Shown one piece after another: positions 1 to 36,070 of a stretch of 64,000 nt of DNA. The stretch comes from Candidatus Bathyarchaeota archaeon (GTDB taxonomy: Archaea > Thermoproteota > Bathyarchaeia > Hecatellales > Hecatellaceae). The DNA lies in the NCBI GenBank assembly GCA_052246995.1, contig JBQPWD010000001.1:245574-309573 (forward strand). The letters are read 5' to 3'. How positions within the stretch are numbered: the stretch's first letter is position 1; every line of letters starts with the position of its first letter. Position numbers and translations under genes: made by a program. The notes under the pieces were generated by a model. That model saw nothing but the letters and a program-made list of their open reading frames with translations. It ran no database searches and was not told the DNA's origin.

Positions 1-990
1 ACTAATTACTTCTAATGCACACCAGCATGGGTCATCAGGCTTAACCCTTGAAGCTTGACATATATCCGCCAAAACTCCTAGCGGAATTCCTCCGGGTTCG
101 TTTTGGCTTCTTATTCTACGCCAAGGCATTGGAGTTCCCATCTGGATTACTTCTGCATGTTTTGCTGCAAATGCAAATTCACCAACAGCAGCCTCACCAG
201 CCATTAAGCGGTAGGCATTTATCATGGACATGGATATCTGCATTGCAGCCCAACGGAACATTGTGCCACCGTCACACGTCATTGCAACCAACGTTGGCAT
301 CCTTAAAACTTGATATATTCTTTTACCAATTGCAGCCTTCAACTGTGCAGCTTGGTCTGCTGGAAACTCTTTGTTAATGTCTATCAAAAACCTTTTATCA
401 ATTTTATCAGCTAACTCGTCGTCACCAGTAAACACTTTCACGTATGAGTCACTTACAAGTCCAGGGTGAGTTTCAACCATATGCTCCTGAACAACAGCAG
501 CACCTGGTAAAGCATGGTTTAAAACTTCAAGATAATGATTTATGGTTTCTGGTGTAACTTCTTTTCCAAGCCTTCTTGTAAGAATCATATGGGCTGCATC
601 CAAACCAACTACAACAGTTCTTCTAATATCATGCCACATTTGATGCATTGCAGCATTATTAATAAAGTGTAAATCGTCAGGTTCACAGAAAATGTCTGTT
701 CCTGAAAGTTGATAGGGCATAAGAACTCTTTGACCAGGACCCTTACCTAAGTGAAGCTCCGGATTGTACATTGGTATTCCACGTTCCTTAACGACTTTTT
801 CACTATATTCATAAAACTCTCTTTTTCTCTTTGATTGCCTCCAACCACCGTAAATGTAGAATTTTGTTTTCTTCTCCTCTGGTGGCTCCTTAAACTTCTT
901 TGTTAATGCGTAATAGAACATTCTATCCTTTTCTATGGGTGTTGGGTATTCCTTTTTAGCTTTGGCTGGTTCTTTTTCTGGTTTTGCCAT
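1..990 (-). CDS. mcrA: Methyl-coenzyme M reductase alpha subunit, 5' part (truncated by the window edge; not in the ORF track)
   Basis: Manual translation from ATG at 990: MAKPEKEP...[11 protein letters not shown]...[33 protein letters not shown]...FTGDDELAD...AAKHA...NEPGGIP. Frame open to position 1. SD-like GGGGTGA upstream. Confidence 0.98.
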
Positions 991-1042
991 AACTTTCACC
1001 CCTTTTCTTATTATAAATTATTTTTTTAATTTTAAATAAATT

Positions 1043-1825
1043 TTAAATTCCTTTAACCGCTTCAGGATTTGCTCCTGCAAGCGTTCTTAACCAATGAATC
1101 CTGTGGACAAGACCCATTACTTCGCTGTCAGTCTTCATTGAAACACCGTCAGCACGGAATTGTACAGTCATTTCTCTCAGCATACTTTCTGGAAGCGGCT
1201 TACCAATGGGTATAGGTTTATCTAATGGATTTCCAACCTGTGACTTCACATAAACCACGTTACCTGTTGCTTCATCGTATATGTAACGTCTTTGCATATC
1301 AAACATTAAGCCGTGTTCATCAAGTCTTAATGCATGTCCGTGAACAGTAGCTCCTCTCACACCGACTCTAGCAGGGTCGAAGAATTCGGTTTCAATAAGG
1401 TCTTTGCTAATTAGCTCAACGTCACGTTCCCTACCTTCTAATGGTGTTCGCCCTGATAAGGAACCTGGGTCTACTCCGCGGTAACGTGAATGATATATCC
1501 AACACCTTATAACTGGTGCTAAGGGGGCAAAGTATACAGAATCAGTAAACTGAATATATCTGATTCTATCCCCAGCTTTGGCACCTGGTGTTGGCTTAAC
1601 AATCTTCCTTACTGGGCATGGGGGTTCACCCATTTCATCAAGCGGTGGATGAACAGTTTTATAGGCTTCACCTGGAGCACGATGGTCTAACAGTCTAATA
1701 AGGTCTTCGTCGCTTATTGAACGAAGCTTTCTTAAGCTGTAGTTTGGATCTAGGTATTTACGTCTATTTTGTGCTGGCTTGCTTAAACCTGGATAATACT
1801 GGGGTTTGTATTCTGGTTTTGCCAT
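1043..1825 (-). CDS. mcrG: Methyl-coenzyme M reductase gamma subunit
   Basis: Motifs PQYYPG, HRAPGEAYKTVHPPLDEM, GAKAGDRIRYIQFTDS, LSGR, RGATVHGHALRLDE. Confidence 0.98.
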   Translation of the reverse strand: MAKPEYKPQYYPGLSKPAQNRRKYLDPNYSLRKLRSISDEDLIRLLDHRAPGEAYKTVHPPLDEMGEPPCPVRKIVKPTPGAKAGDRIRYIQFTDSVYFAPLAPVIRCWIYHSRYRGVDPGSLSGRTPLEGRERDVELISKDLIETEFFDPARVGVRGATVHGHALRLDEHGLMFDMQRRYIYDEATGNVVYVKSQVGNPLDKPIPIGKPLPESMLREMTVQFRADGVSMKTDSEVMGLVHRIHWLRTLAGANPEAVKGI

Positions 1826-3160
1826 TTAAACCACCCCCTTAATTTTACTTGCAGCTTCAGCAACATATTTTATTGGTTCCCTCAACTCAGGAATTTCGCT
1901 AAGAACTTCACCAACCACACCACTAGCTCTTACCGGGTCGTAGTACACGGTTCCGGCATCCAAAGCTACAGCTGCTGCAACACAAGGTATGCAAAAGCCT
2001 TTGCTGTGCCTAGTAACTATATGGTTTCCATGGAAAACTCCAGGATTGCCTCCACCATAGATTGAGTGGCTGAAGAATGACATTTCAATACCTGTACCTT
2101 CTACCTTTCCAAAATCCACACCTGGAAGTCCAGTTTCATGTTCGATCAAATCGTTAAAGTATACAAGAACGGATGTAACATGTTGCATAGCTCTTGCGGC
2201 ACCACAAGTTACCATGGTGCCTGCTAGTAAACCTGAAGCCGCGTACGCATTCCACTTTGGAAGGTCATCGGTTGTGTAAAGAATGAAACCTGAAGGTAGC
2301 TTAGAGAGGGCTCTAATTACCCCATCCTCGTAAGCCTTTTTAGCCGTAGACCTTACCACATCACCTAGTGTTCCATTTTCACCATTTTCTTTGACAAGTG
2401 TGTATGTAAGGTTGTTTGCGTTTAAACCTTGATAGGCAAGACCTAATAGGTGAAGTCTCTCAAATGGTCCTATTGCGTCACCCATTTCGTACATGGCTGT
2501 TTGCTCAAGGATTGCGGCTAGTGCAGCTGCGTTCATAGCATTTTTTCTTGTTATTATGGCTATATGGTAGCAGGGGATGTTTCGTAAGGCATACCCCATA
2601 CCCTCATTTTGCTGGGGTACTGCCAAAAGTGATGCTATATAGCTACCCATCGGATCCATCGTCTGGGGATATCTTCCCCATACCGCTGCATGAATCATGT
2701 CGTAATTCCATATGTCCACATTAAAAGTTTCGATAAGGGTCCAGCATAAAGCAGAAGCAACACTGGTGAAACCAGTGGTATATTCCACACCAGCATCAAT
2801 TCTGGCAGTAGGTGCCATTACAAGCAGATATTCACCATTTCTGAGAATTTTAACTTCAGTATCATCATCTGGCTTAACACGAAGATATTTTGTCAACTTG
2901 TCGGCAATAGCGTTTGCATTTTTAACAATATCAAGTTTTAATTCTCGTCCACGAATGATACAACCCTCACCACCAACAGCCCCTCGCGCTAAACCTCTTT
3001 CAAGACCTGCTAGGTTTACTGCAACTGCACGTTTAAGCGTAGAAACTATTTTTTTAATAGCGGGATTGAATATCGGACTGACAGCCTCTACAGGAATGTT
3101 CTTATCAACAAGCTTTCCAGAATCGTCGTAGAGATCTATCTTATCTGGATACTTGGGCAT
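1826..3160 (-). CDS. mcrB: Methyl-coenzyme M reductase beta subunit
   Basis: Motifs DKIDLYDD, WGRYPQT, GYALRNI, FERLHLLGLAYQGLNANN, SFFSHSIYGGG, GNHIVTRHSKG. Confidence 0.98.
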   Translation of the reverse strand: MPKYPDKIDLYDDSGKLVDKNIPVEAVSPIFNPAIKKIVSTLKRAVAVNLAGLERGLARGAVGGEGCIIRGRELKLDIVKNANAIADKLTKYLRVKPDDDTEVKILRNGEYLLVMAPTARIDAGVEYTTGFTSVASALCWTLIETFNVDIWNYDMIHAAVWGRYPQTMDPMGSYIASLLAVPQQNEGMGYALRNIPCYHIAIITRKNAMNAAALAAILEQTAMYEMGDAIGPFERLHLLGLAYQGLNANNLTYTLVKENGENGTLGDVVRSTAKKAYEDGVIRALSKLPSGFILYTTDDLPKWNAYAASGLLAGTMVTCGAARAMQHVTSVLVYFNDLIEHETGLPGVDFGKVEGTGIEMSFFSHSIYGGGNPGVFHGNHIVTRHSKGFCIPCVAAAVALDAGTVYYDPVRASGVVGEVLSEIPELREPIKYVAEAASKIKGVV

Positions 3161-3213
3161 GCTCCCACCCGTTTACAAGCTTAGTTTACGTCAAGTATTT
3201 TTTTATGGATTTT

Positions 3214-3230
3214 ACTTTTATATTTTTCCA
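3214..3230 (-). promoter_or_regulatory. Putative BRE-TATA promoter of mcrBGA
   Basis: Minus strand reads GGAAAAATATAAAAGT about 55 nt upstream of the mcrB ATG; SD-like GGGTGGGAG directly before the ATG. Confidence 0.45.
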
Positions 3231-34791: not shown

Positions 34792-34847
34792 AAAGCCCTC
34801 ACATAAAACATGAAAACTTCCTTAGAAAGTAACAAAAACAAGCAGTT

Positions 34848-35156
34848 TTATGGAAGCGAATTTCGTACTTCGTAAAGAAGCCATCTTTTAATGGATGGAG
34901 TGTTTTCCGAAGCTTGTGGTAGAAGTTTACAAGGGTAATTTTTACACTCATAACAAAACTTTAGACCATTTTTCTTTACACAACATAAGTATATTTCACA
35001 GTTAACTTTTATGCCATTTTTAGTTCTACAACCAAAACATTTATCTTCACCTATAACTCCCAACCATTCCAAGTCGCCTTTAATTCTAGTGTTTTTAACG
35101 GTTGATAGGTAAACCGGACATAACGTGCAATTTAAACCGCAAGGGGCAACATCCAA
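34848..35156 (-). CDS. DUF3795 family Cys-rich protein
   Basis: APCGLNCTLCP...CFGC...C.IY.CC.....FCYEC..YPC. Confidence 0.85.
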   Translation of the reverse strand: MDVAPCGLNCTLCPVYLSTVKNTRIKGDLEWLGVIGEDKCFGCRTKNGIKVNCEIYLCCVKKNGLKFCYECKNYPCKLLPQASENTPSIKRWLLYEVRNSLP

Positions 35157-35258
35157 TGTGCATCCCCCGTTTTAGCTTAATCATGCCAGTATTTAAATTA
35201 AAACTGGATAGTTAAAATGATTACTATGTCAAGTTTCTCTCATTATTGTTTAAAAAGC

Positions 35259-35672
35259 TTAAATTAACCTTTTTCCTGCTTCAGGTCCAGGTTTAACAGT
35301 GTAAACTTCCTCAACCTTTATTAGCACACCTGCTTTAGTTTTTAATTTAGGCATTTTAGATTTAACCCACATCACAACATCCTCATACTCCTTCCCAGAG
35401 GTGAATATCTTTGCAGAACCCTTAACTTGGTAACCATCTCTTGTTTCAGGATCCCAGAATGTTACTGACACATGAGGATTTTCCTCCAAATTTTTTCTTG
35501 TTTTTTGGAAGAAGTTATCCGCTACAAGCAAATGCTCATCATCATAAAGCTTTACGAATATTATTGGCACCGCGTTAGGTATTCCTGTCTTACTTGACGT
35601 TGCAATGGTTACACAAGCCTTCCCAATAGCCTTCTCCAAGACTGCTTTAACTTCATTAGGAAGCTTAACCAT
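35259..35672 (-). CDS. Pyridoxamine 5'-phosphate oxidase-family FMN-binding protein
   Basis: ATSS..GIPNAVP, ADNFF.KT..NL.ENP, GYQVKG, PGP.AG. Confidence 0.88.
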   Translation of the reverse strand: MVKLPNEVKAVLEKAIGKACVTIATSSKTGIPNAVPIIFVKLYDDEHLLVADNFFQKTRKNLEENPHVSVTFWDPETRDGYQVKGSAKIFTSGKEYEDVVMWVKSKMPKLKTKAGVLIKVEEVYTVKPGPEAGKRLI

Positions 35673-36070
35673 GGTAGCATCACTTCAAAATTAACAGATA
35701 ACTGCTTACAATTTTATTGTAAACCTGAACGTTTATAATAAAGTTTTCCAAACTTGTTGGCTCTCTTCAAAAGTTTTACGTCATAGTTAGCAGTTTCAGG
35801 ATGGATAGGTGGTACAAATTTAAACGGACATTAAATTTTGTGGTTGTCTCAAGAACGTGTAATAAATGTAGGAGCTTGGATTTTCCCAGAAAAAGGATAG
35901 AAAGGGCAAACGCTTACGTGTATATGCAAAGGAAAATTCATGAACAACTTACATTAGCCGCCTAAAAATTGTGGCAGAATGTTACCGTAAATCTTAATAA
36001 AACCCTAGCGACATAATTTGGATAAAGAACAAAAACCATGTAAAAAATACGTTAAAAACTCAATATTTAA

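Follow-up and report, generated by a model that had tools for sequence, protein, structure and literature searches.

Methane-type Mcr and a complete Mtr in one gene block of a Hecatellales (Bathyarchaeia) genome: ancestral holdover or island?

Mcr and Mtr in Bathyarchaeia and related archaea

Bathyarchaeia are among the most abundant archaea of the subsurface. Their role in methane cycling was termed unresolved in the accessible part of a 2025 review, and the two complexes at the centre of methanogenesis, Mcr (methyl-coenzyme M reductase) and the methyltransferase Mtr, have each been reported separately in one of their orders, the Hecatellales, in the texts available. We describe a block of about 45 kb carrying both sets of genes in a genome (assembly GCA_052246995.1, hereafter G000) whose 309,573-bp contig C1 ends on the right with the 64,000-nt stretch analysed, the window (G000:C1:245574-309573).

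Statements drawn from the literature refer to the accessible portions of each source. One family of Bathyarchaeia was described with a near-complete Mtr, Mcr elsewhere in the class being alkane-type (PMC8407382). Adam et al. (2022, PMC9635834) reported a complete Mtr without Mcr in the Hecatellales, the name they gave to GTDB o__B25, regarded this Mtr as a remnant, and inferred ancestral CO2-reducing methanogenesis for the Bathyarchaeia. Hou et al. (2023, PMC10321748), who equate their Jinwuousiales with the same o__B25, identified one Jinwuousiales metagenome-assembled genome (MAG) with a group II mcr cluster, read as vertically inherited; the string 'mtr' has 0 occurrences in the main text of that paper, and likewise 0 in the accessible text of a 2025 review that reports one canonical mcr cluster in a Bathyarchaeia MAG (PMC12694404). 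The McrA of Bathyarchaeia has been placed as sister to that of Methanonezhaarchaeia (PMC12700198), and all Mcr-encoding Thermoproteota except Methanonezhaarchaeia are described as being without Mtr and the methyl branch (10.1101/2025.10.16.682713). The latter statement agrees with an earlier note on this DNA, made from the letters alone, which held Mcr with Mtr to be rare among the Thaumarchaeota, Aigarchaeota, Crenarchaeota and Korarchaeota (TACK). No text describing Mcr and Mtr in one Bathyarchaeia genome was found in the portions of the literature covered, and supplementary tables could hold such a record.

In their enzymes, the Methanonezhaarchaeia (Nezhaarchaeales) offer close similarity, with a group II McrA that is 84-86% identical and sister to that of G000, a complete Mtr, and a gene for methanogenesis marker 14 adjacent to mtrH, as seen in G562 and G568. 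These two genomes, from family f65 of the same phylum, are called Nezha-like solely on McrA identity (84-85%), which equals that of named Nezhaarchaeota proteins. They share with G000 the mcr accessories PPOX, atwA, markers 7, 15 and 5, DUF483, a 111-aa open reading frame (ORF) and a McrD-like protein, and further an A2-like gene, markers 17 and 6, mmp3, mcrC and a 344-aa protein of unknown function. The Nezhaarchaeales differ in belonging to another class, with IleS at 50-51% identity in a separate clade, and in that mcr and mtr lie apart in G568 and G562, whereas they form one block here. Ca. Hecatellales, with Ca. Hecatella orcuttiae, share with G000 the order (by the IleS tree below), small genomes, a tetrahydromethanopterin (H4MPT)-dependent Wood-Ljungdahl pathway, Mbh/Mrp-like complexes and, in some members, Mtr; as described in the accessible text (PMC9635834) they have lost Mcr, whereas G000 has mcrABGC, component A2, YcaO and nine markers. 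The Jinwuousiales MAG of Hou et al. has a canonical group II Mcr and belongs to the same order, but Mtr goes unmentioned in the main text, and the MAG may represent this lineage, that of a second Bathyarchaeia MAG discussed below (G184) or another. The BA1/BA2-type alkyl-coenzyme M (CoM) reductases of group III are also Mcr-family enzymes of Bathyarchaeia, but they are divergent Acr proteins of alkane oxidation with no Mtr reported in the accessible texts (PMC8407382, PMC12694404), whereas the McrA of G000 is methane-type.

The Mcr and Mtr genes

ORFs of at least 80 aa were scanned against NCBIfam and Pfam, and RNAs against Rfam; bit scores are quoted beside the family cut-off. That the window's methane gene block is a real finding is confirmed, and its core consists of the following features, given in window positions.

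1..999, minus strand: mcrA, N-terminal 333 codons (TIGR03256, 528 bits for the fragment); the gene continues left of the window
1043-1825, minus strand: mcrG (TIGR03259, 357 bits, cut-off 172)
1826-3160, minus strand: mcrB (TIGR03257, 637 bits, cut-off 516)
20325..21827, minus strand: marker 14 (TIGR03285, 573 bits), directly downstream of mtrH
21856..26888, minus strand: mtrE-D-C-B-A(F fused)-G-H operon, every subunit above cut-off
33372..34791, plus strand: hdrC and hdrB, canonical coenzyme B-CoM heterodisulfide reductase (TIGR03290, 210 bits, cut-off 160; TIGR03288, 432 bits, cut-off 345)

The full mcrA gene (L010:1492-3222, 576-582 aa) occurs once in the genome and reaches 968.5 bits, the cut-off being 767.75. 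mcrC sits just left of the window. McrA, McrB and McrG each exceed their equivalog cut-off. Against solved methane MCRs, McrA scores 680-873 bits, the best being PDB 1e6v (873), versus 543 bits for the ethyl-CoM reductase 7b1s, and an alkane-type Acr was rejected on this comparison. Its closest database relatives are P0001 (88% identical), P0002 (86%, in a cluster that includes an NCBI 'Ca. Nezhaarchaeota archaeon' protein) and P0003 from Nezhaarchaeales (84%), followed by P0004 from Methanosuratincola (83%), Korarchaeum (73%), Archaeoglobi (70%), Methylarchaceae (68%) and Methanobacteriales (65-68%). A tree of 42 rows, comprising the window McrA, P0001-P0036 except the 787-aa P0013, and six named euryarchaeal rows, groups the window protein with P0001 and P0006 (support 98) as sister to P0002 and the Nezhaarchaeales row (97), these groups being nested in a clade with Methanosuratincola (99). 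This agrees with the sister position of Methanonezhaarchaeia stated in the accessible text of PMC12700198; the McrA of G000 is also sister to that of G184. By score and tree position McrA is assigned to the methane type, group II.

All eight Mtr subunits are encoded in one operon, with scores (cut-offs in brackets) of 326 (238) for MtrE, 220 (127) for MtrD, 163 (104) for MtrC, 71 (50) for MtrB, 264 (249) for MtrA, 64.5 (50.7) for MtrG and 432 (271) for MtrH; MtrF is a domain fused to MtrA (residues 193-248; TIGR02507, 41 bits against 25). The closest MtrE relatives are 64% identical, a band at 56-60% includes Nezhaarchaeota and Methanomethylicota, and euryarchaeotes reach at most 49%. The adjacency of mtrH and marker 14 is also found in G562, G568 and G694, the last a genome of family f79 in the same phylum.

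Placement of the host

G000, from a hot-spring archaeon, is a small genome of 1.53 Mb with a low GC content of about 36%. It is assembled into 17 contigs and, by marker count, is 100% complete and 0.54% contaminated. Right of the block the window continues with genes of the host chromosome, among them the two features below.

36431..64000, both strands: Hecatellales backbone, collinear with the same-genus genome G001 at 83-85% nucleotide identity
37842..37962, minus strand: lone 5S rRNA (Rfam RF00001, 72.6 bits)

The nearest named record for the backbone protein IleS (86% identical) is from an 'uncultured Candidatus Bathyarchaeia archaeon', and further named identities are 66% and 59% for Ca. 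Hecatellales, 61% for Ca. Hecatella orcuttiae and 57% for Ca. Bathyarchaeota/-ia, with more distant values for Thermoproteota (52%), Nezhaarchaeales (50-51%) and Aigarchaeota/Nitrososphaerota (45-50%). Among the 120 IleS matches listed there are 0 euryarchaeotes, and a euryarchaeal backbone was rejected on that ground. In a quick-search tree of this one protein, with 39 of the 120 listed rows chosen to cover all named groups, the window and P0261 (support 100) fall in a Hecatellales clade of 10 rows (99), itself nested in a Bathyarchaeia clade of 14 rows (100); Ca. Hecatella orcuttiae is part of the 10-row clade together with two rows named Ca. Hecatellales, and Nezhaarchaeales and Nitrososphaerota branch outside. 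Placement of the host in the Hecatellales (GTDB o__B25, also Jinwuousiales), class Bathyarchaeia, is thus supported by the one protein used, IleS. The non-euryarchaeal, TACK-type backbone proposed in the earlier note is supported, as is the branch that the note named as the highly unusual case, a Bathyarchaeia backbone joined to a methane-type Mcr and a complete Mtr, for which the McrA scores and tree, the Mtr cut-offs and the IleS tree all speak; the backbone phylogeny it proposed as a check puts the window's IleS inside the Hecatellales clade, with no euryarchaeal branching.

Distribution among relatives

Three sets of genomes were searched: 40 relatives (1 of the same genus, 12 of the same family, 27 of the same class), a class sample of 400 other genomes and a phylum sample of 400, the samples not being censuses and several negative genomes being incomplete. 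Neither the McrA family nor Mmp3 was found among the relatives (0/40 for each). Four of the 13 other members of the family (G003, G010, G012 and G013; three genera counting G000) have MtrE, against 0/27 genomes outside it. The class sample yielded McrA in 2 of 400 genomes, G184 and G394 from other Bathyarchaeia families, both without detected MtrE, and strong MtrE in the same four family members only, none of them with McrA; three hits of 19-21 bits were taken as noise. Among the genomes searched, G000 is therefore the sole class member with both McrA and MtrE.

The two other McrA carriers of the class differ in state. G184 is 81% complete, and its McrA segments are 81% and 89% identical to the window protein. 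G394 is a closed 3.05-Mb genome of family f8, 88% complete, in which McrA is 57-74% identical (65% in the class sample) with its frame broken. A mcrB-mcrC-mcrG-mcrA cluster lies in G394:C1:1650000-1684999 (L073/L074), with marker 7, a NifB-like gene, markers 17, 15, 5 and 6, mmp3, atwA, two DUF2117 genes and marker 2 about 6 kb further; its McrA, McrB and McrC are split across frames with internal TAG/TAA stops, so that they are pseudogenes or else reflect indel errors in an assembly of long reads. MtrE was not found in G394, which has only a 43% MtrH-like gene.

In the phylum sample, MtrE was found in four f65 genomes and one f79 genome, and McrA in three of the four f65 genomes (84-85% identical) and not in that of f79. 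The G568 mcrA gene (C1:320.9 kb) and mtrE gene (C1:999.6 kb) are about 680 kb apart, and those of G562 are on separate contigs; the union of Mcr, Mtr, hdrCB and two transporters in one block sets G000 apart from f65, whichever history holds. The f79 genome, G694 (2.8 Mb, 93% complete), carries mtrEDCBAGH, marker 14 and a NifB-like gene ordered as in the window (C2:63875-70994, L071/L072), and McrA was not found in it; G694 may be another 'Mtr remnant' lineage.

Boundaries of the block and integrity of the assembly

The block occupies C1:236630-281643, or window -8944 to 36070. The extent given in the earlier note, 1-35700 (about 36 kb), has to be revised at both ends, the left start lying 8.9 kb outside the window and the right end being marked by a tRNA.

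36071..36157, plus strand: tRNA with a 15-nt intron in the anticodon loop (Rfam tRNA, 48.3 bits; missed by ARAGORN)

We read this tRNA as Val(GAC). Synteny was assessed by a DNA search of three relatives and by blastn of G001:C2 (10-90 kb) against the G000 genome. G001:C2 is collinear with C1 from 309571 to 282004 (window 63998 to 36431) at 83-85% identity and, past the tRNA and about 1.5 kb on, it resumes at C1:236629 and continues to 195394; G001 is without exactly this block, and both flanks are collinear. The tRNA is the exact breakpoint of synteny, window 36071-36159 being 98% identical to G001:C2:49944-50033. The empty site of G001 holds a gene for a 442-aa CitMHS/ArsB-type transporter (L028:81-1409), whose nearest match in G000 is at C4:138048-139328 (66% nucleotide identity); this family assignment led us to reject it as a mobile-element gene.

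Seven public sequencing runs from two studies, all labelled hot springs metagenome, contain the stretch, and Logan contigs of four runs were aligned to window 28000-44000, which covers the right junction. A 1171-nt contig of run X2 bridges 35645-36815 with 0 differences and is the only bridging piece among those listed, depth is alike on either side of the junction in X1 and X2, and a contig of X1 extends merely 20 nt beyond the junction at 36070; the assembly itself may derive from X1 and X2. Among the contigs listed for X5 and X6, from the second study, none bridges 36070 with at least 31 nt per side. Both runs have sequence 90-99% similar on both sides, with block genes and backbone genes, and related block-carrying populations probably inhabit other springs; the hot-spring populations of the two studies offer a concrete target for cultivation and metatranscriptomics. 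The exact MtrE, the exact IleS and the NCBI member of the McrA cluster are each recorded with 3 contigs, the longest 414058 bp, and the shared longest contig suggests that another assembly links the three proteins.

The earlier note had named a coverage or linkage break near 36 kb as the mark of a chimera, and the check shows none, the X2 contig running across the site and G001 being collinear on both flanks. An artefact of assembly or binning, with a methanogen contig falsely joined to a Bathyarchaeia contig, is in our view very improbable. The genome is a MAG, the Logan contigs are short with no listed piece covering the whole stretch, and the comparison with read contigs is confined to the right junction, all of which would leave room for such a join, but two false joins would be required, at sites that are adjacent in G001, and the perfectly matching X2 contig, the like depth in X1 and X2, the longest contig shared by the exact proteins, the low contamination and the sister mcr cluster of G184, a second Bathyarchaeia MAG, all argue against it.

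Other genes of the block

Between and around the core genes the window part of the block contains the following.

3447..3944, minus strand: XRE-type helix-turn-helix (HTH) regulator (Pfam HTH_3, 38 bits)
4074..6653, plus strand: SsuA/SsuC/SsuB-like aliphatic-sulfonate ABC transporter, all under equivalog cut-offs
7109..7984, plus strand: NifB-like radical SAM protein (TIGR01290, 296 bits, under the cut-off of 344)
8096-8638, minus strand: DUF2124 (Pfam, 143 bits)
9087-10169, plus strand: DUF2117 (Pfam, 273 bits)
10330-11283, minus strand: methanogenesis marker 2-like (251 bits, under the cut-off of 365)
11499-11969, plus strand: GNAT acetyltransferase (family scan)
12025-13161, minus strand: MSMEG_0568-family radical SAM protein (family scan)
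13366..16959, plus strand: mmp3 (marker 3), marker 6, marker 17 and marker 7, all above NCBIfam cut-offs
17029..19249, minus strand: marker 15, marker 5 and HypA-like (593, 214 and 79 bits; HypA under the cut-off of 88)
19191..20225, minus strand: conserved 344-aa protein without NCBIfam or Pfam match
27171..27844, minus strand: 111-aa ORF without family and 113-aa McrD-like ORF
27938-29668, plus strand: A2-like double ABC ATPase (TIGR03269, 322 bits, under the cut-off of 517; a paralog)
29759-31360, plus strand: atwA, component A2 (TIGR03269, 714 bits against 517)
31357..33154, plus strand: YcaO McrA-glycine thioamidation protein (marker 1; TIGR03266, 424 bits, cut-off 365) and DUF483 (Pfam, 94.5 bits)
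34848..35672, minus strand: DUF3795 protein and PPOX-class flavoprotein, the final genes of the block

Beyond the window's left edge lie mcrC and five more genes of the block, with a CoA-disulfide-reductase/NADH-oxidase-like gene, the alpha subunit of an ADP-forming acetate-CoA ligase and a DUF2117-like gene, and its left end is a BtuF/BtuC/BtuD-like ABC transporter (L017:11257-14017) of corrinoid/haem type. The Ssu-like transporter, encoded next to mcrB, matches SsuA_fam (150 bits), a SaoP/TauC/SsuC-type permease and a SaoA/TauB-type ATPase. There are nine methanogenesis markers in the block, of which markers 3, 5, 6, 7, 14, 15 and 17 are above their cut-offs. The earlier note was right to place mcrBGA, the mtr operon, hdrCB, YcaO and most markers in one block, but its mcrD is a short McrD-like ORF (Pfam MCR_D, 56 bits against 25; NCBIfam, 62 against 100) and its second A2 ATPase a paralog; the NifB and HypA genes that it named were found, both under their NCBIfam cut-offs, as is marker 2.

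Several of these genes recur in other Mcr or Mtr clusters. NifB-like homologs occur in those of G394 (55% identical) and G694 (50%), the 344-aa protein is 53-54% identical to a protein that G568 and G562 encode next to mcrC, within their Mcr clusters, and a PPOX homolog (59%) likewise closes the Mcr cluster in these two genomes. The 111-aa ORF, the 113-aa McrD-like ORF and the divergently transcribed A2-like ATPase (window 27171-29668) form a triad that is also seen next to mcrA in G184 (L075:5582-6777) and in the f65 genomes G568 (C1:318498-320836) and G562; this conserved triad may be an activation module specific to group II enzymes.

The remainder of the pathway

Outside the block, C3 202.8-209.6 kb encodes FwdA (774 bits; the Fwd subunit searched), Ftr (179), Mch (389) and Mtd (405), so that fwd, ftr, mch and mtd, for which a search elsewhere in the genome had been proposed, are all four present on C3. 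CdhA of the carbon monoxide dehydrogenase/acetyl-CoA synthase is present in the genome, as are two MvhD-fused HdrA2-type proteins (1031 and 900 bits against a cut-off of 1100), one of which adjoins a polyferredoxin and a divergent HdrBC (L050:2080-3557; 62 and 195 bits, under the cut-offs); of the two HdrBC pairs of the genome, the canonical one is that of the block. There are also a group 3b-like NiFe hydrogenase, a Nuo/Fpo-like complex beside which an FrhB/FpoF-like protein is encoded, and two more complexes of NuoD-like/Mrp type (Mrp/Mbh-like).

From these genes we infer a scheme in which CO2 would be reduced via the H4MPT methyl branch, or the pathway would start from methyl-H4MPT, Mtr would transfer the methyl group to CoM with Na+ pumping, Mcr would release methane, and HdrA2/HdrBC would regenerate the thiols, ion gradients coming from Mtr together with the Fpo-like and Mrp-type complexes. 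Coenzyme M is a sulfonate, and the Ssu-like transporter could import it; together, the BtuFCD-like and Ssu-like importers hint at scavenging of CoM and of F430 or a cobamide. As CfbC, CfbD and ComA gave no match in the genome, the block's two transporters may serve to take up F430 and CoM, and they would do so in the proposed scheme.

Several gaps count against a near-complete and self-sufficient pathway, and they were called with single family models over six-frame translations of an assembly whose marker-based completeness leaves room for genes in unassembled gaps between its 17 contigs. Canonical Mer was not found; the best match in the genome scores 139.7-143.3 bits against 348.7, with Mer as its top family, and a divergent Mer-like enzyme is possible. 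CfbD (Oxidored_nitro) had 0 candidates in the genome and the best CfbC/NifH-family match reached 21.7 bits against a cut-off of 25; no literature on CfbC with CfbD in Thermoproteota was found. ComA was detected in 0/15 genomes including G000, where the M. acetivorans control was also negative and other routes to CoM exist that were not searched for. An Mvh-type hydrogenase (MvhA/G) was not found, only the group 3b-like enzyme. Of the further genes that the earlier note suggested looking for, mer, cfbC and cfbD gave no canonical match, and the hdrA/mvh search gave two MvhD-fused HdrA2 proteins without an Mvh-type hydrogenase. MtaB and MttB gave no match in the genome, which leaves the usual methyl donors without support; because there are 0 ORFs with at least three CxxCH motifs in the genome, in a search for multihaem cytochromes, electron export in the style of anaerobic methanotrophic archaea (ANME) is likewise unsupported, and an ANME-like lifestyle was rejected. 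The earlier note's TACK archaeon with Mcr and Mtr stands. The capability for CO2-reducing methanogenesis that it proposed is putative, reverse methanogenesis finds no support in multihaem cytochrome candidates, and with the gaps in canonical Mer, CfbC/CfbD, ComA and Mvh, autonomous methanogenesis stays a prediction.

It is a serious possibility, albeit one that we rate below even, that the gene set is real and the organism is not an autonomous CO2-reducing methanogen. It might obtain F430 and CoM from neighbours, use Mtr and Mcr in a methyl-dismutating manner resembling that of the cultured Methanonezhaarchaeia strain, with methyl groups supplied solely by the Wood-Ljungdahl pathway or by unknown methyltransferases, or run Mcr in reverse or be losing it. 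The gaps in cofactor, Mer and hydrogenase genes and the presence of corrinoid/haem-type and sulfonate-type transporters in the block would fit such a life, as would the accessible report that the sole cultured Thermoproteota strain with Mcr and Mtr makes no methane from H2/CO2 (10.1101/2025.10.16.682713). Against it stand the mcr, mtr and maturation ORFs of the block, which are intact and mostly above curated cut-offs, the absence calls on single family models, and the same lack of MtaB, MttB and multihaem-type ORFs, which leaves the usual methyl donors and ANME-style electron export unsupported. With G000, one Bathyarchaeia chromosome combines Mcr of the methane type with a full Mtr and the larger part of the methyl branch (Fwd, Ftr, Mch, Mtd and, for Mer, only a possible divergent Mer-like enzyme). 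Its order had served as the textbook example of Mcr loss that left Mtr behind as a remnant, and the combination makes the proposal of ancestral CO2-reducing methanogenesis in Bathyarchaeia directly testable.

Retention or acquisition of the block

The reading we favour, with fair confidence but well short of certainty, is that of a real Hecatellales genome with a full Mcr/Mtr set in one block that is likelier an ancestral holdover than a recent island. The block would be an ancestral Hecatellales trait retained in the G000 lineage, a single deletion would have removed it from the sister species, and Mtr with or without HdrBC would be all that other family members kept. The presence of MtrE in four further family members speaks for retention, and gene neighbourhood does too: the mtr operon of G003 has the neighbours it has in G000, with IleS-AglB-eIF2alpha at a distance of 3.6 kb and the 5S gene at 25 kb, and in G013 hdrBC is divergent beside mtrE, as in G000, where six Mcr-related genes lie between. 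So does divergence. Between G000 and G003 the Mtr subunits are 46-60% identical and the backbone proteins 52-61%; between G000 and f65 the accessory proteins are 24-69% identical (mmp3 36-37%, marker 17 24-29%, YcaO 45%, atwA 55-57%, marker 5 67-69%), while McrABG are 78-86% identical; between G000 and G184 the values are 45% for YcaO, 42% for DUF483, 53% for the McrD-like protein and 79-89% for McrB/G/A. With accessory proteins at 24-69% beside an IleS at 50% in G562 and G568, a recent transfer from that lineage is excluded, and the system of G000 appears as diverged from every sampled one as is its backbone, only the slow-evolving McrABG looking close.

The alternative, which we think unlikely though it deserves a hearing, is that the block is a 45-kb methanogenesis island acquired beside tRNA-Val after the split from G001, from an unsampled donor among the Thermoproteota, namely the lineage of P0122/P0123 (by MtrE) and of the P0001-cluster McrA, the Mtr of G003, G010, G012 and G013 being a separate lineage. 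Several observations pull in its direction and away from retention. McrA and Mmp3 are found in 0/13 other family genomes; within the genus one species has the block and the other does not, and a tRNA forms its edge, the classic picture of an island; and the block unites pathway genes and two cofactor-type transporters in one transferable unit, whereas mcr and mtr are separated in G568 and G562. The 10-kb piece with mcrABG has a tetranucleotide correlation with the genome of r 0.962, the lowest of 30 C1 pieces (mean 0.984, sd 0.007), and a GC content of 0.39-0.41, above that of the genome. MtrH and MtrA of G000 are 65-67% identical to those of G562/G568 and 53-57% to those of the same-family G003, and the McrA identity of 84-86% to Nezhaarchaeota contrasts with an IleS identity of 50%. 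Finally, in an MtrE tree and a concatenated MtrA-H tree, both built by a quick method and with five Thermoproteota Mtr lineages in a polytomy, G000 with P0122 and P0123 (support 98-99) stands apart from the family Mtr clade (95-100).

Other signs of mobility are missing: no integrase, transposase or recombinase is among the annotated block ORFs of at least 80 aa, no att-like repeat of the tRNA of at least 14-15 nt occurs at the left edge or inside the block, and the other three of the four 10-kb block pieces are genome-typical (r 0.982-0.986), so that, of the usual features of an island, absence from a close relative and the tRNA edge were found and an integrase, flanking repeats and a deviant composition (except in the mcr piece) were not. 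No donor of an island was found, the accessory genes are deeply diverged from each sampled system, and the neighbours of mtr in G003 and the hdrBC-mtrE adjacency in G013 speak against acquisition. An approximately unbiased (AU) test does not reject a tree in which the Mtr of G000 is joined to the family clade (delta lnL 0.77, p 0.468), a result that counts against a separate Mtr lineage and is in itself uninformative on gain versus loss; Mtr trees and AU test together do not settle which of the two took place. On balance we rate retention somewhat better than even and acquisition clearly below it.

A further suggestion, which we make tentatively and consider rather doubtful as a whole, is that the ancestor of Hecatellales, perhaps of Bathyarchaeia, was an Mtr-dependent methanogen and that this species is a holdover in which the genes specific to the pathway (Mcr and its maturation genes, Mtr, HdrBC and importers of cofactors that the cell has ceased to make) were gathered into a 45-kb cassette. 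It would be an F430/CoM auxotroph living on the cofactors of its neighbours; if so, one step is enough for methanogenesis to be lost or handed on. As the sister species is without exactly this block, the loss or gain of a whole energy metabolism becomes testable in either case. The kind of system, Thermoproteota with Mcr and Mtr, is already known, and what is distinctive here is the one-block organisation, the clean presence and absence between sister species and the apparent cofactor gaps.

Further features of the backbone

The backbone right of the block encodes speDE, DUF1512 (N and C domains), MAP, an LSM+Lsm_C protein of SmAP3 type, arcTGT, eIF2alpha, AglB and Pop5, and further IleS, TopA, an OST3/6-like protein, MogA, TruA, two AsnC-type proteins and a ribonucleotide reductase (RNR). 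Neither 16S nor 23S rRNA was found in the window with Rfam. The right-half genes listed in the earlier note, DUF1512, the SmAP3-type protein, the lone 5S rRNA, the OST3/6-like protein and the HTH-NrdD fusion, are all present by Pfam or Rfam. Its Smc5/6-like trio fares less evenly: window 56683-59998 encodes a 652-aa SMC_N/AAA protein, as claimed, followed by ORFs of 263 and 184 aa that match no Pfam family. At the far end, window 60627-64000, the HTH-ATP-cone-NrdD fusion is found immediately upstream of an RNR large subunit of class I/II type, and the end of the contig truncates the latter.

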